Assembly (NCBI GenBank): GCA_000091205.1 | Contig: AP006493.2 | Length of the DNA: 64,000 nt | Direction: 5' to 3' (one strand) | Source of the DNA: Cyanidioschyzon merolae | Taxonomy: Eukaryota | In this document: in pieces, positions 11,581 to 64,000 of the stretch | Position numbering within the stretch: the first letter of the stretch is position 1 | Layout of the letters: each line of letters starts with the position of its first letter | Position numbers and translations under genes: made by a program | The notes under the pieces: generated by a model | The model's database searches: none | Told to the model about the DNA's origin: nothing | What the model saw: the letters and a program-made list of their open reading frames with translations, nothing else

Positions 11581-11589
11581 CTAATATTT

Positions 11590-12030
11590 GAGCTAGGGTG
11601 TAAACTTTAGAAGGTCGAGATGGAGAAAAGCCAGCAAAGCGCTCCAGCAATAGAAAAGCACGGAGGACTGACAGAGCAGCAAATTGCGCAGAGGGCGCGA
11701 GTTCTAATAATACATAAAATAGTCAGTTCCACCAGAGGCGACAAACGCATGAAGTTCGTGAACCGATTCTACAACTCCACCATCAATTTCAGACAGTGTA
11801 TGGCGTTGAAGACGAGGCCCGAGGAGAAGAGGCGGTCTAACTTTGTAGGGCAGTGTCTCAGACTCGAAGTGCGTCCGGACAAACTGAAACTGGTTGTATG
11901 CGGAAGGCCAAAAAAAGACTGGGAGGCCTGTGCACCTGGGTATCAATGTACCCTATATGGTCGTGGGTTATTTTTCGTTCCATTAATCACATTTTACATA
12001 CCTCAGGCTGTACATACTCCGATCTAATCT
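11590..12030 (+). mobile_element. C-terminal fragment of the TnpB/Fanzor-like family (degenerate RuvC-III 'VNRFYNSTINFRQC')
   Basis: The peptide 'DKRMKFVNRFYNSTINFRQCMALKTRPEEKRRSNFVGQCLRLE' aligns to the copy-A C-terminus 'DKKRMEFVNRDFNAAINIRRCAVLGNRPPE'. It also aligns to the 39-kb tail 'LKTRPEELTRSNFMGQNLRL'. A terminal-repeat-like sequence, 'aaagactgggaggcctgtgcacc', follows it. Confidence 0.5.
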
Positions 12031-23544: not shown

Positions 23545-24976
23545 CGCACTTGCGCAACGCCAGAGTCAAATTAAAAAAGAACAGGAAACTACGCGCTTTG
23601 TCCAAGCTATCCGCTTTTCTCCCCAACTCACATTCAGATCTACACCCTCAGCGTTCGATGCGCAGTTCTAAGTGCTCACGGACTCATAAGCAGTTCCAGA
23701 ACTCCTGATCGGATTTGGAAGCCTGGTTCCTGCGACCCGTTACCACCGGAATCAATACGATTCGTGACTATGTTGGACACGGGCTCGCCATATCTACGAT
23801 GCTGCGGATCAATTTGTTCACACAAGATTCCACTCTGCCCCTTTTCTTACCTGGAGCACGCTCAAATCATGAGTGCTTCAAAATACAGATACTTTTGTTT
23901 CGGGGCAACTCGTGAGCGCACCAATACGCGCTGCTGGACTCGCGAGGAGCACGAACTCGACGATGTCTCTCGCTGACTTGCGCAAAAGCTCATTCCGCAA
24001 GTTTACTGGACTTGTCACGAACAATAATCGATCAGACACGAATGACCAGCTGTCTTATTTTTTGTGTGGTCAACGACGAATACGATCTCGGAACCACCAG
24101 CACCAGCACCACCAGCACCAGCACCAGCACCACCAGCAGCATACCTCTCAGGGAATATGCTCCCAAAGGCTCCCGTCTATACCGTTTCTATCGTAACGAG
24201 TCTTCAGTTCAGTCTTCGATCATCACAGTGATGGATTCCATTGTAGCGTACTTCTCGGCTCTGTATGAAGTGAGCGTACGCGGATCCAGACTTCTCGACC
24301 GATTCTCTAGCCCAGATTTTCCTGACGGTATATGATTCCTCATGGACAACATCGCCATCTCTAAACCTACAACAAATGCAGCAGCGCGCGCCCGCGCGTG
24401 CAGCGGACCGACTAGTCGCCTCGGATCGCGACCCAGAAGAGGCTCGCAAACGTAGCGTACAACACCAGGTGCGGAATCAGAGAATGGCAGACGCGGAAGC
24501 CCCCGTTACCCCGTAAGGGCTCGTACCAAGTCATAAAGCAAGCGTTTGTCGCGCCACAGAGCGGCCTTCGGATACGGAGGCGTGGTGGACCTTCGGGCAT
24601 ACCTGACCATATCCACTTTTCGCCGCCGCGGAGGCCGCACCCAGACTGTACACCAAAACGAACAGCATGGCAAGCGACGCGTAGATCGCAACGTTTGCCT
24701 GTGCACGAAATGCGTAGACAACAGCCGGCAGCGTCGAAATCGGGCACTTGAACACTGCCATGAACGTCCTTCGGATGCGGACAACAGAGTCGGACGGAAA
24801 GCGGAAGCCGACGTCGTTAAAGTCAGCGATCATAGAGAGGAAACGTAAGCAGTTGACGAAAACGCCCGCAAAGGCTCGCGTTGAGAGCAATTGGAAGGGA
24901 TTCCCACTTGAATATGCTCTCCCGCGTTCCCTGACTGGACTCGTTCTATTCTATTCTGTTCTGACATGGGTGCAAC
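23545..24976 (-). repeat. Right arm of the large inverted repeat, paired with 18897..20330
   Basis: It is the reverse complement of the left arm. Arm-encoded peptides are more than 95% identical. Similarity ends at the sequences revcomp-matching 'ttttttaatttaactctgg' and at '...VLTWVQ'. Confidence 0.9.
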
Positions 24977-33202: not shown

Positions 33203-36200
33203 CGGAACATTTAGGTACGTATCCCAGCTGTGATGATATGTACCATGTTTCGTTTCATACATCCATTACAGGAATGGTCTGCCTAACAGCGTAGGGCAAT
33301 TGCAGCATAGCAAGGCTGTATGCGCTGTAGGCAGAAGGAGCTGGCGTCAAGAGGTAGCGATTGCTGTCACGTTTTCTGCAGAAGAGCTATTTCGTCGCTG
33401 TAAAGATGAGAAGCATCATCGTATGCGCTTCGTGCATTCGTATCCGTGTCCGCAGCTCGAGACTGCTCCATTGCAGGTAGCTTGCGGATGCGGGAGAGCA
33501 CCCAAAGAAGGTGTCCAGCTCAGAAGCTCGCGAATTGTCGATTTTGAGACACGCTTCAGCACAGGGCGTGAAACTCGGGACGCAATGTGGCGAAATATCG
33601 AGCAACGAGGAACTCGATGCTGCGTCGAGCTTATATTTGCCGTGCGTACGACATAGGCAACTCGTGGAGATGCTTATATCCGCGGATTCGGGGTAATAAT
33701 GTTTACATCAGAGTCATATCGACATCTCGCGACGCGCACAGTGTCCAGAAACGAGTTGCCAGCGCCAGCTCCGGCACTGCGGTTTGCGCCCGGTGCATTT
33801 CGTGGTTCGAGTCAATGAACCGCGACTCGCATGGCTGGAAATACGCATAATGATTAGTACTTACGTCACATCGAATTCTTTAGCCTCGTCGCGCAATGCA
33901 GTGCTTCCCCATTTCAGTTTAGCAGGCCCATTTCGGAGGCATTCCAGACCGTTCGCGAACCAGTTCGCATAGCAGGCCAAGGCGTACGTGCCTAGAATGG
34001 GCTTCCAGCCACGAAGCCCCTTGCTTGGCAGCAGCGCAGAGCGGCTAACGACTTTGGCTCTGGTGAAGCGCTCTCTCCGAGCCACGCGTTGCTTCGGATG
34101 CTTCTGCCATTGAATACCATCGTGACTAACGCACGAACACAATCTGGAACGGCAGCGGTTGCTTGCTTCCAATAATCGAGCTTGTGTCAGCAAGCCATAA
34201 GGAAGCTCCTGGAAGTGCGGAACGACTTGTAAAGGGAGCTGGTAACCGCTGAAAGCTCGCTGCCCTGGAGAACGTCCAGCTTGACGTTTCAAATCCCGCC
34301 TGCAATCCCTGAGCCAGCGCACCCAGTGAAGGCATTACATGGAAACGTACCGAGAACAACCAAACTGGAGCAGTTTTGTATCCCAGTCGTATGACTACTC
34401 CATGTCACCGCTTATCTTATGGCGCACCCTTGATATATCCAGTAACATCGAAAAATGGAGCAGGAATCTCATTTACCAATCGTCCAGGGAAATCGATCCC
34501 AGTCTTGAGAAAGACAGCACTTGTGCATTGCGAGATCGCTGATCTGCACCATAGCGAATGCCCTGCTCCGAGCAAGAATCAAGTTCTCTCTCTCCTGACA
34601 ACTGCTTTTTTCGCCGTAAGTTTTTACGGGTTTAGCACACCGTTCTCACTGAGTATTCAAGGATTTCCTCGAATCCTCGCTCCACACACAAAGCCGCTGG
34701 AAGCTCCAGAAGCACGAATATTTTCGGCTGTTGATCGAGACGTTGAACTCTGGACGCAGAACATGTTTGCATTCACTGTTGCTGATCGATGCACAAAACA
34801 CCACGCCTTTCACTTTCGATCGCGTCACCATCAGACCTTCGCTCTGCTGACGATAATCTTTTTCGCCAAACCGTCTCCGTTTCACGGACGTCATCTCAAC
34901 CGGTTTCATCATATAACCAGGCTGGAGATACATGAATGTCGCATTGAATCCATCGATGGGAATCGTACACCATTGATGTCTAGACTCGTTGGGTGCCCTC
35001 GTCGAACGAGCTGAAGTGGAGCCCATGCTCGCTGCAGCAAGTCTGCATCCACTGGGTCCCATTAAATGACGTCATTTGTCGGTTACTTCCATTCCGACGC
35101 ATCGAAGGTTATGAGTGCTCGCTTCTTGCCTATGTAGGAACGAGACCGTTGACATCTCTCGCCCAGTGTCATGGCAGCCTATCAGAGATCATCCGCATGA
35201 GCTGTTTGGACGCACACGGACTCTCTGAATGAAGCGTACAACGCATCAGCCTCTGCTCGATGAGATGCTCAGAGCGTCGAGATGGTTCCAGACAACACAG
35301 TTTCGCTTACTGGTACGCTTCCTAGTGCTGATCATGTCCGACACCTAAGGATATCGAACCCTGAAATAATCAGGTCGCGTTGCATAGTGTGTACCGAGCA
35401 TAAGATGTCACGTGAAGTTTTGGTCCAAAATCGAATAGAAATGCAGACAGCTGGTAGATCATTGACCAGAAATTATTGCGACTGGTTGCTTGAAAAGGTG
35501 CGTCAAGGCAAGGGATGCCCGGCGAGAATCTCTCGAGTAGGAAGATATACCGTCCCTCATGGCGTCGTACAGCTCAAAGTTCGAAGATTATCACCCTGAC
35601 GTGTTTTACTACGGAATGCCTGACAACAGCATTGGACTGATGTTTCGGCTCCGTTACTTTTCCCTGGGTGTACTTCATCGTCCGTAAATCGGAACGATTT
35701 TCTCTTCTTTTTCAAGTCGTTTCCTCTCCGTCCCGTTCACCTGGCGGGCTGGCATAAATATGGCTGCTACCCTCTGTATCCGTTTTCCGTCTCGGAGCCG
35801 GAGACAGTGTGTCGAGGGCGCGTTGGAGGCTCATCTCCTCTATGCACGTGTTCACTGTTCCTGAATTATATTTCCGTTACGATCCCTTTTCGAGGATACC
35901 CATGTACCGACGAACACGTTTTCGTTCGCTCCCTCGCATTAGCAAGGAAGCAGCACATCTGTTTTTGGATATTGAACGCAGGAAAAACTTGTACAAGAAC
36001 ATTTTCTCGACTAAGATTGGTGCCACGGACATGAACGACCGTCCATAGGTATGTCAGGGCATCGACAAAAAATTTGGGAAGGAGCGAGACACAAGGAGAC
36101 CCTCTACGACGGAGACGGTGTTGAGCGATCCCGTCTGTTTCATGATTCGTAGGAGCACAGGCAACTGATTCGCCCGCTTCTGCTGAAGTTTTCGGAATGC

Positions 36201-39129: not shown

Positions 39130-39760
39130 GTCTGATTGGTTTGTTTGCGGCCTGTCACCTCAGTTGTGTTCCACCGCAGGAGCGTGTCATCAAAAGCTTG
39201 TTCGCGATTTATTAGAGATGCGTTCGAAGTGCGTTCATTTGAAGAAATGAATAATCCAAGGGATAGGCATGGGTATGCAAGTGGGGATCCTGGAAGTCTG
39301 GTGTCGCCAGTTGCCGGGAAAAACGAAAAAATCCTCTTCTTGCTGAGTATCAAGCGGAGAGGAGCATATGACGAAGAAGAGGACGCAGGGAGGCGATTGG
39401 CGACAGAAGGCGTTTGCCCGACGGAATGATGACGAGACTGCAATGAAAGAGAGGGCGCGAGTTCGAGGAAGCCGTGCAGTGGTGCGTTCAACCAAGGCAA
39501 AGCATGCAAGGAGTTCGTGAACCAAGACTTCAAAGCTGCCTTCATTGTGAGAAATGTGCGATGCTGAAGACGAGACCCGAGGAGCTGACGCGATCGAACT
39601 TTATGGGACAGAATCTCAGGCTCAAAATGTACAAGGAGAACTTGAAGCCGGAGCAGGAACTGCTCAAAAATGGCTGGGGGGCGTCTGTAAATGTGCAAAT
39701 ATATGGACTCTGTGGTTGCGTATCGTTTCATTCCATGGAACGTATTCGCAGATCGTAGCT
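39130..39760 (+). mobile_element. Internally deleted (MITE-like) derivative of the TnpB/Fanzor-like family
   Basis: An NLS-like N-terminal remnant, 'GDPGSLVSPVAGKNEK', is followed by a degenerate RuvC-III segment 'FNQGKACKEFVNQDFKAAFIV' at 39516..39548. The C-terminal tail 'AMLKTRPEELTRSNFMGQNLRLKMYKENLKPEQ' and the terminal motif 'ggggggcgtctgtaaatgtgc' follow. Confidence 0.55.
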
Positions 39761-42700
39761 GCTTCTTTTATTTTGATTGCTTAGGTTTCACGAGTAGCTT
39801 GGGTTTGTGGAACACATGAGTGCCCTTTGCACCCTTATTACTCCAAATGTACAGAGGATCTTCGCATACCTTGGTACACTGCCCTTGGTGTCTCAAGTGC
39901 TCCCTGTAAGATTTACGCAGCTACTGTATTTTGATAGAGTAGGAGTCGAAGTTGGCAGGAATGCACGTTTAGGGTCCACATTCCTCTGTGCACAAGTGCC
40001 CCTACTATCTTCCGTGTCTGTATGTTAAGGTGTCTTTGGTATCAAATGCAAGTGAGAACCGAGGTCACCAAATGTACTACGGCCTGTTGACTGCGCTGTC
40101 GCAAAGGAGCCGATGGATGCTCGCTGGACTCGCCGAACGCAGATAACAAGACACTGTACGTGAGCGGGTAATTGGCACTGGCGGCTTCATGGTCAAGGCG
40201 CGTTTGCTATAGGCAGACGTGGTGTGGTTGCGAAAAGGGGGTCCAGCGTCACCACCAGCACAAGCACCAGCATATCGATAGAAAGAATGTGGGCCACATG
40301 GAGCAGCTTCACTCCGAATGTCACGTTTGTGCCCATGTGTGCTGCATTCTGCCTGTGATGGAGTTCCAATTTGCATCGCTGTACGATGAAAAACATGTCC
40401 TGTGCCTTGATGGAGCTGTCGGCGAACGAGTCCACATGATGCGTCGTCCCGCGAATAAAGGCAATCATGACCAAGCGAAACATTTAAACTTGGTACTTGA
40501 TGCCAGCAGTTCTGCAAGCTGCGCAGAGAAATCGCTTCGAGCGTGGAGTGCAAGTTTTCAGCATCGGTGAGCAAGAAATGCGCTTGCATACTGCTTGTCG
40601 TCATCGCTTCTCGCTGGCGGCAGAACGAGTCTCCTGCATGTCAACCGCGGAGCTTTCAAAGAGAGCGAACATTCCCATGTACAGATTATTTTGAACCGGT
40701 GTCATTGACGTGTAAAATAGTCTCACGATCATTAAATTCAGATCATTTAAAGATAGCGTCCAATCTAGCGACGGGATGAAGCGCATTCCAACCGGTGCAT
40801 CGGGTTTTTGGGGTAGCGTATTCCACTGTACCAGCGGTCCCGTATAGTTAGAAGAGAACCACAAAGACGGCCGGCAGCCTTGTTCACCTGTCGGAGACTG
40901 CGCTGTACGGCACCATGCGGACCTCATGTTTCCCGCTGCTGTCACGTGTCGCGTAATATATAAATATCATGAACAATATCGAGCACCGAAACACCATCAT
41001 CGTCTCCCAATTTTCCTGAACAACTGTTTCCAATGTATAATCAGGCGCTTCCGCTCTTATCGAATACGGTTCATGCTAATCCCGTGCAGTGCTGACAGCG
41101 AGAATACAATTCTCTTAATCGTCGATCAATTTTCTTCCTTGGAATTCTTCAGTGTTTCGGCGCAATGCCAACGCTGACTCATAAAGGATTCCCTGGAAAG
41201 TTCGCTCGAAACAAAGCGGCTGTATGCTACGGGAATGCGAGACTTTTCTGGATGCGTATCAAAAAATTAAAGACTCGGTTCAGAAATCGGTTGCATGCAT
41301 GGAAGCCAGAGGAATCGCACTGTCGGAAGAACCTCACCATCGACTGCGGCACCATCCGACGTTCGGTGAGTTTATCGTGCATTATATCGCGCGTCCGGCT
41401 CTGTCTAACTCTCTTCTACTTGGCCTGTTCAGTCATGCGCCCGAGCTCATCACGCGGTGATGACGTCCTGAGCTCATCGGTTGTGGTCAACGAGAGCCGA
41501 TTCATGCTCTCGAGAAAAGCCCTCGTCGACAGAACAGCAGTGCAGCCCTTGCGCCCACCAGCACGTCCATTCCCATCTGCTACCAGCACCACAAGACGCT
41601 ACGTATCGACCGTCTCTCGTTCTGACTCATGGAACAAGTAGACGAATGAGTCCCTTTGGCATCCTTACAACCCAAGCCGTTGGCAATTCTGGCATGGTTT
41701 CAGGTACTCCTGGGAGGCATCATTCGCTCGAGCCTTTCGACGAGTCATATACGATTTGAATGAAGCATACCAAGCGTCGAAATTTGTTCGATTTGGTGCT
41801 CAGGCATCGAGATGTGTACGAACGCCGTAATTTCACATTTGGGGGGTCTCTCCTGTTGCCCATCATGTCTGGCTCAAGACGGTACCGCCCCGTGCACGAG
41901 GTCAGCAGCTTTATTTGCTTTCCGTTTGAGTCTTTCGCACCAGCCTCTGGATCTAGAGTTGCTTGGGCTGCGGCGGTGGCTTTCAGCAAGCGATCAGCGC
42001 TCACCTGGAAGTCTTTCTCTGCGCCTACCCTGAACAACTGGATATTGGTCTTTTTCCTCGACACAGGCCTAGCGTTCACAAAGTGAACAATGTTTCATAT
42101 GTTGTGCGTCTCTATCGTCCGTGTGGGCTTCTATGCATTTTGCTCCTCGTCGACGAGGAATCATGAACATGTGCCGCTAATGCTCTTCTTGAAATTCTGT
42201 GAATGCGACAAATTTCTCTTAGGGATCACTTGAAGCGCATTGAGGAGGCCAAAGAATACTGTGCAGAAAAATTTTCTCTTGGATAACATATGCCTTGATC
42301 TTACAACTGGAGACCATATTCAATAAGCGCTTGAGGGACTTCGGGCACTCAGATTCGGATAAGGCGTCGGTTTTGCTTTTCTTCTGAACGGCGCTCTGGG
42401 AAAAAGCGAAATGGCGCAGCATGCAATCTGGGTAGGGATCATGGTTCATATAACTTTTGCGTTAAACGTCCGTCGGTCTGAGGCCGAGGGCAGTGCAATG
42501 CGCTTAGACGATCTGAAGCGTCTAGCGCTCTCATTTTGGCACCTCTTTCGAACTCGACGCAATCTCGAGATCTTCCAAAAGGAGTACGTCATTTGTCTCC
42601 GTCGGCACACCCCAGAATTCATTCCATCAGGATGCACCTCCTCGGCATATGAGGTGAGGCTACGAGGGATGCAACGTCCACAGCGTTCGCTTCATGAAGA

Positions 42701-46409: not shown

Positions 46410-46980
46410 ATCGATTTTTTTTTCAGATTTTCTTTTCAGATGACAAACCGTTTAGATTGACCAAGGATCCCAGAATTCGGAATGGATATTCGCCTTCGGG
46501 AAAGCGTCTACTATGAAGCACCTACCTTCATGTGTCATTACTTATACTTCCTCTCGGATATGCTGGTCGTTTCGTATATTCTATCGTGTACCAAGTGCCT
46601 GCCGTGAAGACACGCCGTAACGCGCTTATACCACTGAAGCAGATCCTGCACGGAGACAGAACGGCTTTGGCATACCACTGAGGGCGTCGGCTCGAGGCGT
46701 GATTCATCCGATACGGGGTCGGAGCACATAATCATTCTGGGAGCCTGCGACAGCGCGAAGCGATATACTAGGAGTCCACTGCGACCAGGGCGACGCTCAG
46801 ACGCAGCGTACGCACTCCTCGTTCCAGAATGAATTGCGTTGCGAACGAGTTGCACAGGTCTCGCCACAGCACCTGCCACTGGAGGAAGCATGAAGCACTA
46901 GCTAGCCCCAGACACTCGTCCGGCTCGCGGGACCTTCCGCCTCGAAAGTAAACTTTCGAACATACGGAAACTTTCCCCAT
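46410..46980 (-). repeat. Dispersed repeat 'X' of about 0.6 kb, in minus orientation. Other copies are at 57470..58060 and partly at 63260..63670.
   Basis: It is about 80% identical over roughly 570 nt to 57.47-58.06 kb. It starts at 'ttcgaggcggaaggtcccgcga' and ends in an A-rich stretch. The paired pseudo-ORFs 46538..46891(-) and 57713..57931(+) share '...PTPSVVCQSRSVSVQDLLQWYKR'. Confidence 0.8.
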
Positions 46981-47144
46981 TTCAACGCTTACTATCAAGG
47001 TCATGCGAAACTGTTATCGAGTTGCTAGTTAGCCGTTAGTTTCTGCTCTTTCAGCAATCTGTCGGGACTCACTATGATTCTGGGAGCCTACATGGCGATT
47101 TATGCGTTGCGATACGCTACTGAAACTGTAACAATGCAATTACG

Positions 47145-47800
47145 CTTCATCCACACTGCCGTGTACAGCAGAAGATCGAAACTAAGGTGCAATGTAGTCT
47201 ACGTATCGAAGATAAATTTCGTGTAGGATATATGCTGTACTGAAAAGTGGAACGAGGACGACATTCCTTCTTCAGGTCACTCAGAACACAGTACTCAGAT
47301 TGTTGAGTGATACTAAGAAAAACAAGTGGATGTTCTCCGTATCGAAAACCGAGATTCTTAAAGCGCGTTTGCGGGCAACAGTACAGAACGACTCATTGAT
47401 CACATTACGGCAAGCTAAAGCGACGATCGCAGCAATCGCGGGCGTCCCTGTCTCTCAAAAGCTTGTTCGTGTGGTCCTGGAAACACCAGGATCCAGTCCC
47501 GAAAAAGAGTACTAGTTCACGCACGGCCAGCTTCCATCGAAATTGCAACGACAGCGTTCCTAGAACGCTCCTATCGGTATGTAGCACAGGGACGTCGGTC
47601 TGTTTTTTTAGTTCATGAGACTTGCCTCTGGCGAGACAGTCCTATCGAAAAGGGGAATTCGCAGAGCAGGGATCCCGTTATGCTTACGATCGAGCTCTAG
47701 GAGAACGAGGATACCGTCTGTGTTAGCCGTAGTGGACTGATTTCACAGCCGCAGTTTCTATCGTAGAGAAGGCTCATACAACAGAAGTATCCACTTCATC
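47145..47800 (+). mobile_element. Decayed HTH module (Tc1/mariner-like transposase remnant). This is the second copy of the module at 10745..11580.
   Basis: The peptide 'KATIAAIAGVPVSQKLVRVVLETPG' and 5' nucleotide similarity match the 10.7-11.6 kb copy. It lies between repeat X (46.4-47.0 kb) and the Fanzor-like mini-element (48.1 kb). Confidence 0.45.
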
Positions 47801-48134
47801 GGATCATTCCAGTCTTTTTCCTAACTTCTTGCAACTTGGAGCTAGTGGACAACGCAGTATTTCATCTTTCCCCTTGTGTTCTAGCTTTTGCCAATGGTAT
47901 GGTGGAGTAGTGCTGCTTTTCATTTCGCGATACTGTCTCTGATTCATCCCCACCGAAGGACTGGTTTCTTCGATGAAAGGTAATGACGTCTCCAGTGTGT
48001 GAATCACAGAAGAATTCAGCACGCGGTGACACATCGGTGCACATTGCGTCTTCTTGCGTATGTCCATCTGCCTCAGGGGAGGTCCCTACCTAGGGGCATA
48101 AAGAAGTGCGTTCATGTTCAAAAAAATGAAAATT

Positions 48135-48480
48135 CCAAAGGCAAGTTATGAACATGAAAGTCGAGGATCCTGGAGGACCGGTGTCGCCGGGTTCGAAGAA
48201 AACGAAAAACTACTCTTCACGCCGACCATCGAGCGAAGGGAGGCAAGTAGCACAGACGAGAGAAGATAGACGGGAAAACATATTTACCCTACTGGGCGGT
48301 GACAAGACTTTAGTGGCACAGAGTGCACGAGTTCTTGCAATCTTCGCGGTGGTTTATTCAACCAAGGCAATGCGCACAAAGAGTGCGTGGACCGAGACTT
48401 CAACGCTGCCATCTATATCAGACGATATGCAGTGCTGAGGACGACATGCGCGGAGCTTATTGGATCCAGCCCCAGCTGAG
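48135..48480 (+). mobile_element. Internally deleted (MITE-like) derivative of the TnpB/Fanzor-like family that retains an intact RuvC-III motif
   Basis: An NLS-like region, 'KVEDPGGPVSPGSKKTKNYSSRR', is followed after a frameshift by 'FNQGNAHKECVDRDFNAAIYIRRYAVL' at 48391..48420. Confidence 0.6.
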
Positions 48481-52184: not shown

Positions 52185-54341
52185 ATGCTGCTGCTTGTTG
52201 TAGAGGTTGTGTATGGAAAGGGGCGCTCCCTACTTCAACAGGCACAGTGCATGCACCCGCACCAGAGCAGCGAAGCGGACGAGTCCTCAACAGGCGTACA
52301 AAACGAGTCTGCACCGCGCTGGGCGAATACTCGTTTGACAAAGGGCCCCAGCGAAGCGGCGCCTGAAGCACCGGTAAGCGACCTTAGCCCTGAATCATCG
52401 ACCGCGCTCCCAGCGGTTGGCGCTGCTAGTGAACGCGGAGAAGTGTGTGAGGCCTGGCGAAAGCAGCCTGCAACAGGTACGGAGTCAGTTGACCCGCCGG
52501 CCCGAGCGAATGACTTTCGCAAGCCAAAAGGGTATGCGCGCCGGGAACCGGAGGACTGCCCGAAATGGCTCGATTTCAGGGCGGGAAACCCAGAGATTCC
52601 ACTGGACACCGTTACTGGACGCATTCATTTGCTTGCAGACCGGCAGAGCGCTCGTCGTGTTCAAGAGCCCCAGCTGGAGAGCAGTGCTCCCGCGGCGAGC
52701 ACCACAGCGGCTGTGCGTAAACCCACGGAATCGAGCCTGGGGGACCACATTGCGCGCTCCATACTGGAGCATAAACAATCCACTTTGAACGAAGACGAGG
52801 ACCAAACGAAGAGAGCCGAAGTCGAAGTGGGTACACCCAAGACGCTGGCGGAGGCATCCAGCGACTCGGTGAAGGGTTCACATGCCACTGGAGAGGTGCC
52901 GGCTGCTCACTGGAAATCGTCTCCTAGCTCGCTAACTTGCTCGGACTTTGCCCGACGGCATGCAAAAGCTTCCATGATTTTCGATCAAACGACATTGCTC
53001 TGTATGCTTGGAGTTCCCGGTTATTTGAGCACTGCCGATCTGGCCCAGTTTGTAGCACCATTCAGGAGTAGAATTCGCCGAATGCGAATTGTTTGGGACT
53101 TGTCCTACTCGAATTCGTACGCGGTTTTGCTGCGCTTCCTGAGCCCAGACGATGCTGTCCTCTTTCGAATGGAGTACGATGGGCGAGCGTTTTCAGAGGC
53201 TCTCGCTCCCGAGCGATGTCGGGTGCTCCCTGTGGAGCGCGTGGTCTATCGCTGCACATCAAAACAGAGTTCCCGTTTGGTCGCCTCGTTGGCGCTTCCT
53301 AGCGAGCAGGACGGGGACGAAATCGTGGAATATGACGAGTCAACGTCGAGTGACGCGGATATCGGACATCTGGAAGAGTGGCCTACCTGCCCAGTGTGTC
53401 TTGATCGGCTCGATCTCGAGTCTATACTGGTGGGCCTCTGCAATCACGCCCTGCACACGGCCTGTCTGGCACGTTGGGGCGATCCATCGTGCCCCGTGTG
53501 CCGCTTCGTGTCGGAGACGCTGAACCCACAAAAAACCTCTTGTCAGGTCTGTAACGCTCAGACGCAGCTCTGGATCTGTCTCGTTTGTGGGCATGTGGGA
53601 TGCGGGCGCTATGTGCAACACCATGCGCTTGCGCATTTTCGAGACACGAACCATGTCTTCGCCATGGAACTGCAAAGTGGGCGCGTCTGGGACTATGGTA
53701 GCGACTCGTACGTTCACCGCGTGCTGCTGAACGAAGTCGATGGGAAGCATGCAGTGCTCGAGATGCGTGCGTCGACCGGCAGCCGCGCTGTCGCAGCGAG
53801 CGGTGTTCCTTATCACAGCGATGGAGGTGCGAATGCACCGGCAAGCTCATCCCAGCGAAGCGCTCCGGAGATAGACGAGGAACGCACGCAGCTTTTTGCT
53901 GCGACGATTGCTAGCAAAGTTGACTCACTTTCACAGGAGTATGAAATGCTTCTGCTTTCGCAGCTGGAGTCGCAGCGGCTGTGGTACGAGGCAAAGGCGA
54001 CAGAGTTGGAGCGAGCTTGGAGCAAACGCGTTCAGGAACTCGAGCAACGCCTTGAGCGACTCAGCAAACCGAAGTGCTCGCGAGACGCAGCCACGGGTGA
54101 TGGAGCAGGTAATGAGTTTGATGCCAAGCTTTTACGGGAGCTGAACGAGCGCTTGCTTCGTGACGCTGCTGCTTGGCGCGAGCAAGTCGAGCGTCTCAAG
54201 AGGGAGCGCGACGAGCTTGCCGAGCAAGTGAATGACCTCCTGCAGCACATTGAGGCGAGCGCGAAGCTATCAGCCCGAGGAAACAATTCCACGAGCATTC
54301 GGCTAGAGGCGCTTCGCAACAGGCGCATCACAAAGCCCTAG
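52185..54341 (+). CDS. BRAP2: BRCA1-associated protein BRAP2/IMP-like E3 ligase (RING-H2, ZnF-UBP, coiled coil). The start is uncertain.
   Basis: The RING-H2 finger reads 'CPVCLDRLD...CNHALHTACLARWGDPSCPVCRF'. The ZnF-UBP region reads 'CQVCNAQTQLWICLVCGHVGCGRYVQHHALAHFRDTNHVFAMEL'. A C-terminal coiled coil follows. Confidence 0.85.
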   Translation: MLLLVVEVVYGKGRSLLQQAQCMHPHQSSEADESSTGVQNESAPRWANTRLTKGPSEAAPEAPVSDLSPESSTALPAVGAASERGEVCEAWRKQPATGTESVDPPARANDFRKPKGYARREPEDCPKWLDFRAGNPEIPLDTVTGRIHLLADRQSARRVQEPQLESSAPAASTTAAVRKPTESSLGDHIARSILEHKQSTLNEDEDQTKRAEVEVGTPKTLAEASSDSVKGSHATGEVPAAHWKSSPSSLTCSDFARRHAKASMIFDQTTLLCMLGVPGYLSTADLAQFVAPFRSRIRRMRIVWDLSYSNSYAVLLRFLSPDDAVLFRMEYDGRAFSEALAPERCRVLPVERVVYRCTSKQSSRLVASLALPSEQDGDEIVEYDESTSSDADIGHLEEWPTCPVCLDRLDLESILVGLCNHALHTACLARWGDPSCPVCRFVSETLNPQKTSCQVCNAQTQLWICLVCGHVGCGRYVQHHALAHFRDTNHVFAMELQSGRVWDYGSDSYVHRVLLNEVDGKHAVLEMRASTGSRAVAASGVPYHSDGGANAPASSSQRSAPEIDEERTQLFAATIASKVDSLSQEYEMLLLSQLESQRLWYEAKATELERAWSKRVQELEQRLERLSKPKCSRDAATGDGAGNEFDAKLLRELNERLLRDAAAWREQVERLKRERDELAEQVNDLLQHIEASAKLSARGNNSTSIRLEALRNRRITKP

Positions 54342-54849: not shown

Positions 54850-57175
54850 GGAATGTTTGCAGCGGTATCGCGAGCTTTCACATGCCGACACCGAACACTT
54901 TCCAAAAGTCGAACGATGCCGACCGTGTACAGCAGTGGCGGACGGTGCGCCCTAGACGACGTCTCCATCAGACGTGTAGACGCCTCCCCGTCTTTTTGGA
55001 CCGGCCACCCACTACTGTCTCCAACTTTTTCTCATATTGTTTGACCTTGAGAGGTTGTCCAAAAAAGTTCCTTCTTGTTCACTCTGGAGGTCTGTTCCCC
55101 AGCACCGCACATCTCCGGATATTGATAGCGGCATTAAAATCTCGATTCACAAACTCCATCCGTTTCTTGTCATTACTAGTTGTACTTACTAGTGCAAGTA
55201 GCCCTCGCACTTTTGCCATCCTTTGCATTTGCTTTTCCGTCTGCGGTCCGTACTTTGCTATTTCCTCAGGACTCCTCTGGCACTTTTCCATCTCAACTCT
55301 CTGAAGTATACTCCCCAGCTCATGGAGTGTATACGATGTTCGAAACTCATATACAGGTATCGTAATGAAACGCCGTGCACACTCGTTGTACGTTCTCGTC
55401 GTTGGAGCTCGAGTAGTCCCTTTTTGGGTCTTCCATAGCCCTGCCCCATACGCTACTACGAGACTCTGATTCTCGTCCTTTTTGAAGGCACTCAACTGAT
55501 TGAAAATGTCGGCAAACGCCCGCTGCCTCCCACCATATAGATTCATACGCAAACGAGACCACCGGGGCTTGGTATATTCCTCCCACAGTGCATCCCAATG
55601 AGCAACACGAACTTCCATGAATTTCCGAAAAGCTTCAAAGTCCGCTCTTTGGCTCGACACCTCGCTCAAAGCTTCCAGGTGATCCTTCATCCCTCCATTC
55701 CATGTCTCGATTCTCGATTGTATCTCGATCTCGAGCACCTCAAAAGACGCTTGTCTTTCTGGCTTTAGTTGCCGTCTGTGCCATCTTACCCACGCTTCGA
55801 TGCTGCGATGGTTATGATATTCGTATTCCCAGCGTCCGCGCCAACCATAAAGTTGTTAGCCTCCACCTCCTGCGTCGCAGGACCCGCCTTTCTCTCATCT
55901 TCATGGCTCACCAAGGGCGGGACTCGACGATCTTTCTTCAATAGCCGTTAGTGTACACCCAAGGCTACACCATCGGTTTCGATCATCCCAGTGGACAACT
56001 TTGCTTGCTCGCTCTCAGACGTTTGAAATTGAAGATGTTCTTCCAGTACGTCTGCCGGTATTCGCCGGCGAAGTCCTCCCTACTAGCATCGAACTGGGGA
56101 CTGATCTCCTTCATGATGCCGTGAAGGATTCTGGAGTCGGTACTCACAAAATGTGACTTGATGTTGCACATTGGAACCGCGTTGAGGTGCTTTCTCATTA
56201 GGAAAGCTTTCCGTCTCTCCCACTCTTCATTTTTTCCTCACTCTGCTTCATCTCTGCCTTGCGTTCGAGCTCTGGTCCAGAAACACGAAATAGCGCAGGA
56301 CGAGGCGATAGTATTTTTCTTTGTCTTTTTTCAACTCTGATATCTGTCTGCTGGATTCGCCAGCCCCAAGACTGCACCGTGCTCATGTATAACCGAACGG
56401 ATGAGGGAATTCTCATTTGTGCTCCTGCTTGACGGCTTCTTATCGACGAATTCGACTTCATCTTCATGCTGGCGATCTTTCGCTTTTCCATTGATAATCG
56501 CCCATATTCCTTTGCGAGAGATGCCCGGGTACAGCGCAAACACGGCACGTATTATGAGACGTTCGAGTTTCACGATTACGTGATTCTTCAGGTTCGTGAT
56601 GTACTTCGTCGCCCCTTATACGTAAACATTCGAATCACCTCTGTATGGAGTACTGTTGAAGCTGTGGAAGGGACATTTTTTGTGGAGGTCATGCACTCGC
56701 TCCTTCCTCATCGATGCTTTTCTTGTGTCAGCCATCAGGTGACGAATAAAGCTCTTATCGAAAAACTCGTCCGGAATCTCGACCGTTTCCATGTGCATCA
56801 CGTCGCGATACATCTCGCTCGCCAAATGCATCAGTCCTGACGACGCCTTGACGATACTCTTGGAGTACCAGTCGACACGGTTTCTGATAGCTTCTTGCTA
56901 CTTGAACGGATCCATGATATGTACAAGAAGACAGGCTTTCACCACCATCTCGTTGCACAGTCGTCTTTCTTGCCGCCTTCGACCTAGGGCCTTCCCCTTT
57001 CGGTCCTTCTTCTCTCTTTTTTCTTCTGGATTCCGCATTGTCTTTTGCTTTTTTTTTTCTGGCAGCCGGCGACCCTGGACCTCCAGGATCGTCAACTCGC
57101 TTTTTCATAGCTTTTTTTTTCATCTTTTTTGTGAAAAAGAACGCTCTTTGAACCCTCCTGTTATATGCCACGACA
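54850..57175 (-). pseudogene. Copy A: the longest copy of the TnpB/Fanzor-like (OMEGA RuvC nuclease) element. Its coding region is decayed into several frames.
   Basis: The best fragment, 55079..55738(-), carries the RuvC-II-adjacent block '...ITIPVYEFRTSYTLHELGS...' and the RuvC-III block 'RMEFVNRDFNAAINIRRC'. The lysine-rich N-terminal region 'KKMKKKAMKKRVDDPGGPGSPAARKKKAKD' lies at 56755..57171(-). The middle segments at 56331..56573(-) and 55983..56198(-) match copy B at the peptide level. The 3' terminus at 54960-54990 carries the hairpin AGACG-cctccc-CGTCT. Confidence 0.65.
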
Positions 57176-57469
57176 AAACGCTCGAATATTTTTAGTCGAG
57201 GGTTGAAACGGCATCGGACTGGAAGCTATGATTTGTTACGACTTCCACACAAATACAGCTTGCCTGTTAGAACAGCAAGAAAACGTGTCGTCACGGTCGC
57301 GTTTCTCTTCAAAGGCGACATATGCGTCGTGTCTCGTAAGTGCCATACTTGGAGATGCACGTATCGAGCGCGCCATACAGGAAAAAGGACAGTGACTTAC
57401 GATTTACAAGAAACGATGTAAAATTTTTTCCCGCTCTACGATAAGCGTTTAAGGGGAAACAGATCGCCG

Positions 57470-58060
57470 TATTATCGGAAGCTTATGTTCGAGGCGGAAG
57501 GTCCCGCGACCCGGTCGAGTCTACCGGGCTAAAGCTCGGTATGCCTCTAAAGTGGCCGCTGCCGCTGCTGCTGCAAGACCTGCGTAGCTCGTTCGCAACG
57601 CATTTTATCCTGAGACTATGCACAGGATGCTGCGTTGGGCCTCGCCCTGGTCGCAGTGGAACCCTAGTACAGCACTTCGCGCTGGCGCAGGTAGTAGGTC
57701 TTTCTGCGCACTTTGCATGTTCCCAGAATGACAAATAGCCCTGATTCCGTTTCAAGTGAATCATTCCTCGAGCGGACGCCCTTAGTGGTATGGCAAAGCC
57801 GTTCTGTCTCTGTACAGCACCTGCTTGAGCGGTATAAGCGCTACAGCGGGTGCTCACAACAGGCTCGGCGCTCGATAGAACATACGAAACGACCAATATA
57901 TCAGAGAGGTAGTATGGATAATGGGACTTGAGGACAGGTGCACTATGATCGAGATATCCCCGGAAGCCATCGTGCGTTCCGAATTCTGGGATGCATGGTC
58001 AATGCAAACGTTCTTTCATCAAAAAGAAAAAAACGCTCCGGAGGCGGACTCGTCATCGAG
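57470..58060 (+). repeat. Repeat 'X', plus orientation, immediately upstream of the copy-A N-terminus
   Basis: See 46410..46980. The order and opposite orientation relative to the Fanzor-like ORF match the 46-48 kb locus. Confidence 0.8.
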
Positions 58061-58410: not shown

Positions 58411-59486
58411 GTGCTCTTTGGAATGACGTCAGGGATCGACGAGGCAGCAGCTGAGCTTCAGGGAAGTCTCTTTGGGGAGGTCTCGCCTGCGATCGACACG
58501 CCGGGTGCGGCGCTTGCACGTTCGTACCCCGTCCGCATCACCGTTGTCGGAGCTGGTGACGTTGGCGTTGCTTGCGCCTATAATATTTTGACCCGAGATA
58601 TTTGTAGTGAGCTGGTACTGGTGGACGTTCTCAAGGACAAACTCAAGGGTCAAGTTATGGACTTGTAGCATGGAGGTGCGTTCTACAGCACCCGCATCCG
58701 GCTGCCGAGTCCCACGAGGGTACAGCACATTCGGCAGTATGTATTATAACGGCAGGTGCGCGTCAGCGGCCCGGAGAAAGTCGTCTCGAGCTCATGGATC
58801 GCAATGCCGCATTGTTCAAAGGCATTATTCCGCCCCTGGTGCAGTATTCGCCGAACACAATCCTGTTGGTTGTGAGTAACCCCGTTGATCTATTGACACA
58901 TCTAGCGTGGCAGATGAGTGGCTTGCCTCGCGAACGTGTGATTGGCTCAGGGACATATTTGGACTCTTCGCGTTTCCGCACACTTCTGGCGCAGCGGCTG
59001 GGCATCGATACCGCTTCTGTCCAGGCCATGGTACTGGGCGAGCACGGAGACTCCTCGTTTGTGTACCGGAGTGGTATTACGGTTGGTGGCGTGCCGTTGC
59101 GAACATGCTTCGAGCGCATGACCGACGCTGCGAGCGCGTCCACAGCATTCTATGATCTGGTGAAAGGTGTCCATCAGCAAGTTGTAGCCGCGGCTTACGA
59201 GGTCATTAAGCTGAAAGGCTACACCAACTGGGCCATTGGCAGCGCTGTTGGAAGCATCGTTACAACGATTGTGCATGATCGGCGCAAAGTGCTGCCAATA
59301 ACGACGCATGCGGGCTCGTTGCGAGGCCTCGAGTCGGCGGATGTATTCTTGTCGTTGCCATGTGTGCTAGGTCGGAATGGTGTCGTTGAAGTACTACAAA
59401 TACTGCCGTTCATGGAAAGTGACGAGAAAGAAGACCTCCAATCCAGCATAGAGGCACTCCAGAGCACGGCGAAGAAAGCATCTTGA
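58411..59486 (+). pseudogene. LDH: L-lactate/malate dehydrogenase (LDH-like) carrying an in-frame TAG and a 1-nt frameshift. It is either a pseudogene or affected by sequence errors.
   Basis: The N-terminus '[20 protein letters not shown]...[17 protein letters not shown]' is typical of LDH. A TAG at 58666-58668 sits exactly where 'DLQHG' is expected. After a -1 shift near 58700 the other frame continues '...TAHSAVCIITAGARQRPGESRLELMDRNAALFKGIIP...' through to 59486. Confidence 0.7.
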
Positions 59487-60599: not shown

Positions 60600-62850
60600 G
60601 ACCGAAACGTCTCGTAAGACCACCGCACCCGACGACAACAAACATCTTTCGAAACAAAAACGTTGCTGCCGGCAGTAGACAGTACTGGCGAGAAACTCGC
60701 CCTAGACAAGAAGTCGCCAACTGACGTGCAGACGCCTCCCCGTCTTTTCCGACCGGCCACCTACTGTGGGTACCATTTGTTCTTATATAGTTCCAGTTTA
60801 AGAGGTTGTCCAACAATGGACTCTCGTGTCACCGCTGGGAGTCTTTTGTCTATTCCCGCACATCTCCGTAGATTGATTGCAGCGTTAAAGACTCGGTTCG
60901 CGAACTCCATACGTTTCTTGCCGATGGTAGACGTACTTACTAATGCAAGTAGTCCACGAGCTTCTTCCCTCCTTTCCATTTCCTCTCCCGTCAGCTGTCC
61001 CTTACTTTTTTATATCATGACGACTCCGCGGGCACTTTTCAATCTCCATCTTCTGAAGAGTACATCCCAACTCGTGGTGTGTATACGATGTTCGGAACTC
61101 ACCCACAGGTACCGTAGCGAGACCCAGTGCGCACTCCTTGTCCATTCCTGCCGTTGGAGCTGGTGTAGTCCCTTTTTTCGGAGCCCAGCCCCCTACATCA
61201 TATGTAACAACGAGCCTCTGACTTGATCGTCTTTCAAGCCGTTCAACCCATTGAAAAAGCTCGCGAATGCGTGATGCTTACCACGGCACAGATTCATACG
61301 CAAACGTGCCCAGCGGTGCTTTGTATACTCGCCCTACAGCGCCACGGAATGAGCAACCCCAACTTCCAAAAATTTCAGAAAAGCTTGAATGTCCGCTCAT
61401 CGGCTCGTCACCACGCTCAAAGCCTCCAGGTGATCCTTTATTCCTACATTCCACGTAACGATCTTCTTCCTTGCATTCGTTATACCGGATTCTCGATAGT
61501 ATCTCTCTCTCTCGAAAACCTCAGCAGAAGCATATGTTTGTGGCGTAAGGTGCAGTCAGTGCAATCTTCCCTTCGCTTGTGAACAGCGATGGTTATGAGA
61601 TTCGTGCTCCAGGGACTAAGGCCGACGCCAAAGTGGTTTTCATGGGGCTTATACGTTCCATAGCCCGTCAACCTGTGTTCGTTCTTCGGCAAGGGCCGTA
61701 AAGAAGACGGGATAGGACGAGCTGCCTTCAACCGCTGATGGTGTACACATATGTGCGCCACATCGAGATCGATTGTTCCAGTGAATAACCTTTTTTTGGC
61801 CGGTTCGGGACACTTGAAATCGAAGATATTCTTCTCGTAGGCGTCCCGATCTTCACCGGAGACCTATTTGTTGATTACATCGAGCTATGGATAGATCTCT
61901 TTCCTGAAGATGCAAAAGGACTATGGGGTCGATATTCACAAAATGTGACTTGAACGCGCATAACCGACCGACATTGAAGCGCATCTGGAGAAGACTTCAA
62001 TGTCGTTTCTCGCACTCGTCTTTTTTTCCACACTCAGCTCCATGCCGACCCTGCGATCGAGGTCTCGGACCGAAAACATGAAGCAGGGCAGGTTGAGAGA
62101 GTAACAACTCTATCCGTCGTTTCTCATATCCGAGAGTTTTCTCTTGGGTTGACATGACCCAAGACCGAACGATGTTTTAGAATAGTCGCGCGAATTACAG
62201 AAGCATCATTCATTATCCTGCGTGATGTCCTCTTGTCGACGAGTCTGATCTCCTGTTCATGCTGGCGATCGTTCTTCATACCGTCGATGATTGCAAGCAT
62301 CCCTTCGCGAAATAGGCCATGGTACAGCACAAAGGCGACGCGTATCATGAAACAATCGAGGTTTGCCATTTTATGGTTCCTCACATTCATAAGGCACCTC
62401 TTTGCCCTGTATTCGTAAATGTCTGCGTCACCCCTGTGTTCAGCACCGAAGACGAGGAATTTGGCGTAATTTTTGAGGAAGGCATGCACTCGCTCACTTA
62501 TCCCCGATGTTTTCCCATTAAAAACAATCAGGTAGTTGATGAAAGTCTTTTGGAAAAATTTTTCCGGAAACATCACTTTCGCGATAAGCGTTACGTCCCG
62601 ATGCAGGTCGCTGTCCAAATGCCAACGTCCTAAAGAGAAGATACAAACATACCTGGCGTACGAACCGACACGGTTTCTGATAGCGTCTCGCAACAATCAG
62701 TCGTACGGATCATTGATATGTTGGAGAAGATAAGATTCCACCACCATCTTGTCGTACAGAAGTCACAATTTCGGCCTTCGATGTAAGGCCCTCCCATGTT
62801 GCTTCTTCTTCTGTTCTTGACCCTCTTCGCTAAGCACTACGTCTCGTTTC
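60600..62850 (-). pseudogene. Copy B: second long copy of the TnpB/Fanzor-like element. It is more decayed than copy A.
   Basis: The ORF 60761..60979(-) reads 'LLALVSTSTIGKKRMEFANRVFNAAINLRRC...GQPLKLELYKNK'. The ORF 62124..62696(-) matches copy A at '...GMLAIIDGMKNDRQHEQE...'. The 3' end at 60721-60745 contains 'gacgtgcagacgcctccccgtctttt'. Confidence 0.6.
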
Positions 62851-63259
62851 TTTCTGACATCCGGCAGCACCGGCCACCCCAAACCCACAACCTCCAAATA
62901 CATAAGTCTAATTTTTGTTTTGGGAGAAAAACTCATTGGACGCTTCTGCTTTGAACGGCGAAAATAAGTTGAATACCCTTACTTAATGATTGAAACGCCA
63001 TAGGAGCCAAAACTATACTTTGCTACGATTCGATCAGAAATACAAGTGGCCCCGATAGAGCAGTCGCTCCAGAAGAGGTCATTACCGCGTTTCTATTGAT
63101 CGGCGAGATGCACGTAGCGTGACGTGACGGCCAGATTTCGCGATGCGTTACCAGGACGCACGATATAGAAAATGCCAAAAAATTGACAATATCCAAAAAC
63201 GGGGTACCAAGTACTAACGCCACCTACTGTAGACGTTAAAAGGAAGAAGTCTTTGCGTA

Positions 63260-63670
63260 TGGTCAAGCAGTGACATATAGGCGGAGGGTCGGCAAGCAGC
63301 GAGACTCTACCAACCGCTAATACCGGTTGACCATACAGTTGCGAGTGAAGTGACACACCCTAGCATCCCATCCGAAAAAGAACAGATTCTGGAACAAGGA
63401 GCGGATATATTGCGTCTAAGCGTGACCTAGATTGCGGTAGACTAATGGTATAGCGCTTTACGCTATCGCAGGCAAAAGGTCTGCAAGAACAGCTTGAAGG
63501 CTCCAAAGAAAATAAATTTCCCTGATCCCATGTTGCATGAACCAAGACCCTTCCAAAGCGCTCAGTGGTAGGCCAGAGCTGATCTGTTTGAAGAGTGCAA
63601 CAGCAACGAAGAAAGAGAGGCTACGGCGGGTGCTCAGAGCAGGTAGACGGCGCAGGAGAGAAAGTCTGAT
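63260..63670 (+). repeat. Partial repeat 'X' upstream of the copy-B N-terminus
   Basis: The sequence 'ggcggagggtcggcaagcagcgagactctacc' matches X 'ggcggaaggtcccgcgacccggtcgagtctacc'. The sequence '...gctacggcgggtgctcagagcaggtagacgg' matches X '...gctacagcgggtgctcacaacaggctcgg'. Confidence 0.5.
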
Positions 63671-64000
63671 ACGATCAGTACAGCCGAGATAAAGTAAATG
63701 CGACGGAAGGGAAAGAAACTGGTCAGCGGGATGGACGATTCTCCGAAACCAGTATCGATCCAGGAATTTCGCCGGTCTATCCAGTGGGCAAGTTCCACCA
63801 GACCAATAAAAGCATAGCGCCGGAGGTAATTCCCTAATGGCTCTAATATGCTAAATGAAAAAAATGACATATGCAGAGGAGCTCAGACGGTACCGCCGAA
63901 AAAAAAATCCCTAACGAGTCCGGAATGGTAGACGTCAAAATCACAGACGCTTTCGCGCTGGGATCATCGCGTTAATGGTGGGACTGGGGGGAATGGGGGG

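Follow-up and report, generated by a model that had tools for sequence, protein, structure and literature searches.

Introduction

Fanzors cut DNA under RNA guidance; their RuvC glutamate is rearranged and they carry a nuclear localisation signal (NLS) (PMC10530073). They have been defined by a DPG motif together with an alternative glutamate (PMC10711439). The paper that named them, by Bao & Jurka in 2013 (Mob DNA 4:12; PMC3627910), reported one Fanzor1 family in Cyanidioschyzon merolae, CMe-1, whose element CMe-1A measures 3169 bp, is present in ~150 dispersed copies with ~80% identity to their consensus, and contains one single-exon gene for a 734-aa protein. CMe-1A shows no terminal inverted repeats (TIRs), has no known target site duplication (TSD) and was assigned to no class of transposable element; its 5′ 635 bp are identical to TE-N2_CMe, a separate element of ~70 copies (PMC3627910). 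The searchable literature contains no omegaRNA or activity for CMe-1A. Here, we analyse a 64,000-nucleotide stretch of C. merolae DNA (the window), in which a preliminary description made from the sequence alone had noticed a multi-copy family of TnpB/Fanzor-like RuvC nucleases, and find that this piece of the nuclear genome in all likelihood contains decayed copies of CMe-1A, the transposable element that bears Fanzor1.

Results

Decayed copies of CMe-1A

We aligned the CMe-1A consensus (Additional file 2 of PMC3627910) to the window. Consensus positions 2–3165 align to 58020–54900 on the minus strand with 81.1% identity (copy A), and positions 37–3166 align to 63767–60646 on the same strand with 72.7% identity (copy B; Table 1). 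Copies A and B share 68% DNA identity over ~2.1 kb, and copy-to-copy conservation runs a few bases beyond the end of the published consensus. On the minus strand between 54.9 and 57.2 kb, one protein of ~700 residues can be read across three frames, and the published 734-aa CMe-1 protein is 64% identical to a rough repaired translation of copy A, close to the ~700 aa that had been inferred beforehand. Searching with repaired copy A by tblastn reveals seven related places in the window which, together with the consensus alignments, bear out the multi-copy family of the preliminary description: alongside the two full-length copies, the window has three derivatives with truncations or internal deletions, two relics of much greater age and one solo TE-N2_CMe. 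Failure of the consensus to align, or a fold other than RuvC, would speak against this family identity; the consensus aligned, and the modelled fold is that of a Fanzor1 (see below). Judged by sequence, the window elements are members of the known family CMe-1/CMe-1A, catalogued in 2013, and their recognition is a correct rediscovery.

Both full-length copies are heavily damaged. Copy A, at 85% nucleotide identity to the consensus open reading frame (ORF), is disrupted by 7 frameshifting indels and 7 in-frame stops; in copy B, at 76%, the respective counts are 11 and 7. No copy in the window is able to encode the protein; they are fossils, as the statement that all copies are decayed had anticipated. 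The span first proposed, 54850–57175, covers the ORF remnant of copy A, but the element itself runs from ~54889 to 58020.

Table 1 Positions of CMe-1A family features in the window.
Feature	Position	Strand	Basis or remark
Copy A, full-length decayed CMe-1A (TE-N2_CMe-like 5′ module and Fanzor1 core)	54889–58020	−	Consensus 2–3165, 81.1%
Copy A, 5′ module, TE-N2_CMe (consensus 1–635)	57385–58020	−	Consensus alignment; PMC3627910
Copy A, Fanzor1 ORF remnant, pseudogene	54959–57108	−	tblastn with CMe-1, three frames, residues 18–732
Copy A, lysine/arginine-rich N-terminal stretch, NLS-like (KKMKKKAMKKRVDDPGGPGSPAARKKKAKDN...)	56920–57129	−	Direct sequence reading
Copy A, RuvC-I motif VGADAGNTN (consensus GADPGNT; Asp kept, Pro to Ala)	55819–55845	−	Direct reading; absent from the preliminary description
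Copy A, alternative RuvC-II Glu motif YEFRT (consensus DEFRTS; copy A YEFRTS)	55337–55351	−	Glu is E656 of P0001, invariant in 97 relatives
Copy A, RuvC-III motif VNRDFNAAINIRRC	55109–55150	−	Six-frame translation; Asp is D725 of P0001, nearly invariant in 97 relatives
Copy A, conserved 3′-terminal module following 'RPPE', with a terminal hairpin at its end; putative omegaRNA scaffold or cis-acting end	54889–55090	−	Column conservation, folding
Copy B, older full-length CMe-1A, more decayed	60646–63767	−	Consensus 37–3166, 72.7%
Solo TE-N2_CMe (consensus 2–636, 79%)	46439–47051	+	Consensus alignment; also a repeat of 57442–58030
Internally deleted derivative, consensus 869–970 joined to 2904–2960, VDRDFNAAIYIRRY	48104–48437	+	Consensus alignment, tblastn, six-frame translation
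Internally deleted derivative, consensus 800–969 and 2835–3083, NQDFKAA	39160–39687	+	Consensus alignment, tblastn, six-frame translation
3′ fragment, consensus 2738–3086, with module X (10749–11409) before it	11589–11935	+	Consensus alignment, tblastn
Ancient family relic, 25–30% aa identity, many stops	34721–35575	−	tblastn E = 2.7e-9, residues 464–681, plus 70–134
Ancient family relic, 30% aa identity to residues 486–706, many stops	41170–41832	−	tblastn E = 1.6e-14

The ratio of nonsynonymous to synonymous substitution rates (dN/dS) between lineages is 0.29–0.40, and the protein was therefore under purifying selection during diversification of the family. Such past selection (dN/dS 0.3–0.4) might be taken to mean that the copies are host genes, that is, domesticated nuclease paralogues still in use rather than transposon fossils, and one environmental copy does keep a long open frame with all three catalytic motifs. 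However, the frameshifts (7–11) and stops (7 each) in both full-length window copies argue otherwise, as do the ~150 dispersed copies with their ~80% identity to the consensus (PMC3627910), the conserved non-coding ends that travel together with the ORF, and the annotated NCBI C. merolae proteome, which contributed none of the 36 matches of our sequence search. We consider continued use by the host very improbable.

Profile and fold comparisons

The repaired translation of copy A retrieved those 36 relatives exclusively from metagenomes or read-archive assemblies. A profile built from 13 relatives matched one solved family, the Fanzor1 of Spizellomyces punctatus (SpuFz1; 8GKH), with E = 4.7e-7 over ~380 residues. 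The match covers RuvC-I (VIDPN in SpuFz1), the alternative Glu and RuvC-III, aligning vvgaDPgntnii with VVVIDPNKRDILY, DEfrTS with DEYKTS, and nrDfnaaini with NRDMLSTCNM. With the same profile, 3630 cluster representatives were found at E ≤ 1e-3 among 1.84 billion proteins, so by this measure the family nearest the CMe-1 profile is very large.

For structure prediction with AlphaFold2 we used P0001, the closest long relative (752 aa, 58% identical to repaired copy A), in a 97-sequence alignment; the structure modelled is thus that of a relative and not of a window copy. The model has a mean predicted local distance difference test (pLDDT) score of 83 and a predicted template modelling (pTM) score of 0.81. 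In Foldseek, Fanzor1 structures (SpuFz, PpFz and GtFz) take the first seven places among its PDB matches (E = 6e-17 to 4e-14), with target-normalised TM-scores of ~0.7 for SpuFz and 0.49–0.56 for PpFz and GtFz, while Cas12 variants, Cas12f and Fanzor2 appear only at E ≥ 0.02 (Cas12f at E ≥ 0.04, Fanzor2 at E = 0.06). All 97 relatives have the RuvC-I Asp and the alternative Glu, and nearly all have the RuvC-III Asp. The profile match and the predicted fold identify the protein as Fanzor1-type, in agreement with the TnpB/Fanzor-like RuvC nuclease that had been proposed; the structure comparison suggested at that stage likewise ranks Fanzor1 first.

Catalytic motifs

Six-frame translation of the window located every peptide quoted in the preliminary description at its reported place: besides the RuvC-III motif of copy A, these are the 'P.YTS' block ITIPVYEFRTSYT at 55328–55366 (−), the RuvC-III-like peptide of the 48-kb derivative at 48387–48428 (+), the degenerate NQDFKAA at 39520–39540 (+), and ANRVFNAAINLRRC at 60860–60901 (−) in copy B, where the RuvC-III Asp is lost (NRV). 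With copies A and B aligning over ~2.1 kb and seven related places in the window, the similarity is far beyond chance.

Direct reading of copy A added a RuvC-I motif. D484 and G486 (P0001 numbering) are invariant in the 97 relatives, the Pro between them is nearly invariant, and DPG is present in 74 of the 77 scored relatives; the motif is unrecognisable in copy B. At the canonical RuvC-II Glu position, copy A is non-acidic (VVAYGAG, 55439–55459), and its RuvC-III reads NRDFNAAINI, as does the consensus. This motif content (DPG, an alternative Glu before the zinc-finger site and a non-acidic canonical position) fits the published Fanzor definition. The N-terminal stretch rich in lysine and arginine agrees with the lysine-rich N-terminus noted earlier; this end is modelled with low confidence in P0001 (residues 1–3 pLDDT <50; mean of 48 over the first block of ten residues).

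A 75-bp unit located shortly before the RuvC-I motif (consensus CMe-1A 2117–2196) encodes ~25 aa (KHEEKKEADPATQEVQENDFVV-like) and occurs in variable tandem number in metagenome copies (L020:5152–5671, L001, L004, L017, L035 and others), reaching 7.0 copies in L020. The window copies have a single unit, and Tandem Repeats Finder reported no arrays within 54–64 kb of the window. In the P0001 model, the tandem-unit stretch (residues 376–469) is disordered.

Absence of the zinc finger and its effect on detection

Between the alternative Glu and RuvC-III, a CxxC...CxxC arrangement with both pairs is found in none of the 77 scored relatives, the first pair in 9 of 77, and CMe-1 has neither. Most relatives keep a single Cys in 'GLLWC.ST'; the site reads DEFRTSYTHHELGCTLQRVEMEKCQ...LLALVSTTSDGKKRMEFVNRD in CMe-1 and corresponds to window 55151–55336 in copy A. 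These alignments mark zinc-finger absence as a trait of the large Fanzor1 subclade nearest CMe-1, not of the window copies alone.

Several observations count against the Fanzor1 assignment and its functional implications. The Pfam check that had been proposed (OrfB_Zn_ribbon) fails on single sequences, which never reach the gathering score of PF07282 (Cas12f1-like_TNB, 26.3 bits): the copy A ORF scores 12.9 bits, the published consensus 11 bits and P0035 18.5 bits (E = 0.0023), P0001 falls below threshold, CMe-1 sequences give E = 0.13–0.5, and repaired copy A and three other relatives have no match. Also, phmmer of P0035 against PDB sequences returned nothing significant; the profile alone succeeded. 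PF07282 stays under threshold because the subclade has lost the zinc-finger cysteines on which the model relies, and given this loss the proposed Pfam check would wrongly have spoken against the Fanzor idea. Since the canonical zinc finger is absent, retained nuclease activity in the subclade is not certain. A precomputed Pfam label, PF26935 (domain of unknown function DUF8286), is weak and adds nothing.

Taken on their own, the non-significant single-sequence Pfam and PDB searches would also suit a chance resemblance of the NAAxNI block in an unrelated domain. The profile-to-PDB match, the fold match and the (nearly) invariant Asp/Glu/Asp triad in 97 relatives refute this, and we give it practically no weight. 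A further alternative is a prokaryotic origin, in which the copies would be TnpB of IS200/IS605 type, present through contamination or recent bacterial transfer: the RDxNAAxNI RuvC-III is common to TnpB and Cas12f, and the sole Pfam match is the weak Cas12f1-like_TNB. Yet the copies sit between exact C. merolae nuclear genes, the protein is ~734 aa long with a basic N-terminus, it has the alternative RuvC-II Glu and the RuvC-I DPG, its best structural matches are Fanzor1, ten further window ORFs that we scanned include none resembling TnpA, and blastn against a phage collection gave no DNA match. Genomic context and fold ranking refute a prokaryotic TnpB identity, for which we see next to no chance.

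This context is that of an ordinary algal nuclear region, as had been recognised. Eight long ORFs are exact full-length matches to proteins of C. merolae 10D chromosome 11 (BAM80631–BAM80643), and the window is intron-poor, gene-dense and of ~54% G+C, with nuclear genes for BRAP2, cyclophilin, syntaxin, proteasome subunits, RNase H2A and others. C. merolae is a unicellular, thermoacidophilic red alga.

Relatives in hot-spring metagenomes

Among 81 related loci from hot-spring-type metagenomes, only one lineage (L001/L003, encoding P0001) keeps a long frame together with all three motifs. Its open frame spans 778–819 codons, and the N-terminal start appears shifted. By its sequence, this lineage represents a near-intact copy in environmental thermoacidophilic relatives.

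Several hot-spring metagenomes also contain contigs (L082–L089) with the exact BRAP2 protein of window 52185–54341 and the same neighbour genes; the C-terminal ORF of copy A is part of these contigs, which terminate within the copy. It follows that those samples contain populations closely related to 10D in this part of the genome. An empty site was sought among them to fix the termini and TSD of the element: all eight of the eight metagenome contigs with exact BRAP2 carry copy A and break inside it.

Element architecture and movement

In the metagenome copies, the shared Fanzor core begins at about consensus 640–650, at a short palindrome (in many copies GCGCTC-GGT-GAGCGC, in the type linked to TE-N2 GCGCG-GTCGATA-CGCGC); it is seen at window ~57355–57377 in copy A and in loci L005, L020, L034 and others. 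Upstream of the core, at least four different modules occur, among them TE-N2_CMe in either orientation. Because the core occurs behind such varied modules, the 3169-bp element as published may be a composite in which TE-N2_CMe is joined to a ~2.5-kb Fanzor core. The 3′ end bears a hairpin, CGTTCGA-CTT-TCGAACG or a form of it in a different register, with a few conserved bases behind it; the true end apparently lies a few bases beyond that of the published consensus. Over the first ~10–25 nt past the terminal hairpin, the sequence is rich in G and T and loosely patterned in trinucleotides (GTTTGTTGTTGG, GTTGATGGTG, GGTGGTGGTG), after which flanks diverge; this tail is present at window 54866–54896 and 60613–60643 and in the 3′ flanks of most loci, and may belong to the element end or reflect a target preference.

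How such an element moves is a weak point of the transposon interpretation, as no transposase, TIR or TSD is known for CMe-1A (PMC3627910). Neither did the ten further window ORFs scanned include any resembling a transposase, Rep, Y1 or TnpA. Replitrons, which are HUH transposons, were considered as a carrier and set aside, none being reported in red algae (PMC10288648). With no TIR or TSD, hairpins at both core boundaries and interchangeable 5′ modules, CMe-1A could have been moved by a mechanism unclassified for Fanzor carriers, for example a HUH-type single-strand enzyme acting in trans.

A conserved 3′-terminal module

We aligned 42 non-redundant 3′ ends of the family. In the stretch coding for RuvC-III, columns at codon positions 1, 2 and 3 average 0.89, 0.91 and 0.71 identity, respectively. 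After 'RPPE', codon periodicity is lost and conservation remains at 0.65–0.81 for ~200 nt, compared with 0.28 in the flank. The codon after 'RPPE' (55079–55084 in copy A; alignment columns ~108–110) is hypervariable (TTG, TAG, TGG, TCG, TGA); a stop follows 'RPPE' directly in 9 of the 42 copies, copy A included, and the intact lineage stops eight codons later. Given the lost periodicity and the hypervariable or stop codon, the tail of the 734-aa ORF is therefore probably not constrained as protein, and it is the nucleic acid that is conserved. On this alignment, the protein may actually end at 'RPPE', which would leave the last ~43 codons of the published ORF as non-coding sequence acting as RNA or DNA.

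The last ~130 nt of the sense strand are predicted to fold into a domain that has internal hairpins and is closed by long-range pairing of AGTAGTGGGTGGC to GCCGCCACTACT, with the terminal hairpin standing apart. Applied to all 380 columns of the 3′ alignment, RNAalifold gave one short helix, within the coding part only, and ribosum-scored RNAalifold on sub-windows yielded the structure that was then tested. Under this structure, 88% of alignment cells are paired, compared with 35–62% when partners are slid. Folding z-scores of sense strands are −2.7 (L003), −4.3 (L075), −1.8 (copy A) and −1.9 (copy B), and those of the two antisense strands tested are −1.3 (L003) and −0.75 (copy A). Rfam gave nothing at gathering thresholds on the whole window and has no matching family for the 3′ module; at E ≤ 1 on L003, the sole match was a Listeria sRNA, which we attribute to chance.

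Conserved at the nucleotide rather than the codon level and folding on the sense strand, the ~200 nt after 'RPPE' would be the best candidate for an RNA scaffold, and the 3′ module is a plausible but unproven candidate omegaRNA. Evidence that tells against an RNA comes from the same data: covariation is weak, with 24/500 and 12/500 shuffles reaching the observed values; the L064 copy has a fold z of only −0.3; and conservation of the module could equally reflect a cis-acting DNA end needed for transposition. The signal in the 3′ alignment is blurred because most copies are neutrally decaying fossils.

The main rival to an omegaRNA is, accordingly, a DNA end or hairpin acting in cis for a trans-acting transposase (e.g. 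HUH/Rep), or a terminator. The lack of TIR and TSD in CMe-1A (PMC3627910), the hairpin near the 3′ end, the palindrome at the 5′ boundary of the core and the weak covariation of the larger RNA fold all suit such an end, and end hairpins are typical of Rep-mobilised transposons (PMC10288648). However, the ~200 conserved nt go far beyond the need of a terminal recognition hairpin, both antisense strands tested fold worse than their sense strands, no Rep or Y1 gene was seen among the window ORFs scanned, and characterised TnpB and Fanzor omegaRNAs lie in exactly this position, where both roles can coexist (PMC10530073). A purely cis-acting end thus strikes us as possible but rather unlikely. The further-reaching proposal, that the ~200-nt module is the omegaRNA of a zinc-finger-less Fanzor1 subclade with near-intact copies still present in hot-spring Cyanidioschyzon populations (the P0001 lineage), is one we put forward tentatively and with more doubt than confidence.

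Derivatives and other repeats

The short derivatives (11.6, 39.2–39.7 and 48.1–48.4 kb) share only internal segments ~800–970 and ~2740–3090 with CMe-1A, differ from it in their 3′ terminus, and are associated with another repeat module, X. The derivative at 48 kb consists of 48104–48210 and 48381–48437 and lies downstream of the unrelated module X (47146–47796), that at 39 kb consists of 39160–39330 and 39445–39687 and has a 3′ terminus unlike that of CMe-1A, and the 11.7-kb fragment is 54% identical to CMe-1 residues 612–721 (tblastn E = 6.5e-27). Shorter derivatives, earlier described as resembling miniature inverted-repeat transposable elements (MITEs), thus exist, but they are recombinant non-autonomous relatives and not simple MITEs.

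Module X is ~650–900 bp long, its two window copies (10749–11409 and 47146–47796) being 68% identical, and recurs directly upstream of CMe-1A fragments in the window and in metagenome loci L021:255–1181 and L066:7980–8920. This suggests a composite non-autonomous element family, made of module X and CMe-1A pieces, with internal segments borrowed from CMe-1A.

Two further features of the window lie outside the CMe-1A family. Between copies A and B, a lactate/malate dehydrogenase-like gene (58411–59486, +) has its Rossmann N-terminus in one frame, an in-frame stop at the expected 'DLQHG' position and the remainder (Ldh_1_N end and Ldh_1_C, 58794–59486) in another frame; from this reading it looks like a pseudogene. 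An inverted repeat of 1.43 kb (18898–20325 and 23554–24975, 98.7% identity) surrounds a 3.2-kb segment that holds an ORF (21037–21852) with no Pfam match. Part of this repeat is 66–73% related to 12041–12294 and to sequences in many metagenome loci, and it is probably a member of another repeat family.

Discussion

Our data suggest that the product of the ancestral CMe-1A element would have been a single ~734-aa protein, specified without introns, in which a basic N-terminus and a helical REC-like region accompanied a split RuvC nuclease, whose Fanzor-type catalytic set would comprise the DPG aspartate, the alternative glutamate in DEFRTS and the aspartate in NRDFNAAINI. By homology with characterised Fanzor1 and TnpB enzymes, an active protein would associate with an omegaRNA that its own element produces from the 3′ end, with a guide read from the sequence just past the element end, and the complex would cut matching DNA beside a transposon-adjacent motif, helping the element to persist or spread. 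We infer from characterised Fanzor1 and TnpB (PMC10530073) that live members would be omegaRNA-guided DNA endonucleases.

The discovery value of the window itself is small, as Fanzor1 in C. merolae was already catalogued in 2013 and the copies here are dead. Part of the residual interest lies in the transposon class of CMe-1A, still unsettled in the literature, and part in the zinc-finger loss across a large Fanzor1 subclade, which bears on the detection and annotation of such proteins; the candidate omegaRNA and the near-intact environmental copy add to it. A Fanzor was correctly recognised from two short motifs, with no tools, where Pfam fails, and this makes a useful calibration point. As the hosts are thermoacidophiles, those who engineer nucleases could take an interest in a live copy from a relative: if the omegaRNA proposal holds, it would be a naturally heat- and acid-adapted eukaryotic RNA-guided nuclease.

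Of the solved structures, the Fanzor1 proteins SpuFz1 (8GKH, 9CEU–9CEZ), GtFz and PpFz are closest, sharing with CMe-1 the predicted fold and the order RuvC-I DP, alternative Glu DE[FY]xTS and RuvC-III NRD, although the sequence identity of P0001 to them is 12–16%. SpuFz1 and CMe-1 are both large (600–750 aa) with a basic or disordered N-terminus. SpuFz1 keeps the CPRC...C-NPNC cysteines between the Glu and RuvC-III, whereas CMe-1 reads HHELGC...EKC, with no second pair; RNA-guided cleavage is demonstrated for SpuFz1, and would be expected of CMe-1 from homology only.

TnpB of IS200/IS605 (ISDra2 TnpB) and Cas12f share with CMe-1 the RuvC fold and the RDxNAAxNI RuvC-III, but structural similarity is marginal (E ≥ 0.02). 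TnpB is ~400 aa long, has no NLS and is associated with TnpA, in contrast to the ~734 aa of CMe-1, and its RuvC-II Glu is canonical in most TnpBs and alternative in CMe-1. A guide RNA encoded at the element 3′ end and overlapping the ORF end is established for TnpB, and by analogy CMe-1A may have had the same arrangement. Fanzor2 (Acanthamoeba polyphaga mimivirus, 9B0L), eukaryotic or viral, has TnpB homology, DPG and the alternative Glu in common with CMe-1; it is compact and TnpB-like, without the large N-terminal helical additions present in CMe-1, and its structural match to P0001 is weak (E = 0.06, 280 aligned columns).

Closest of all is the published CMe-1A itself. Copies A and B belong to the same family, likewise carry a TE-N2_CMe-like 5′ module and lack TIRs, and are old and diverged; they are individual decayed members of CMe-1A, and nothing essential sets them apart from it.

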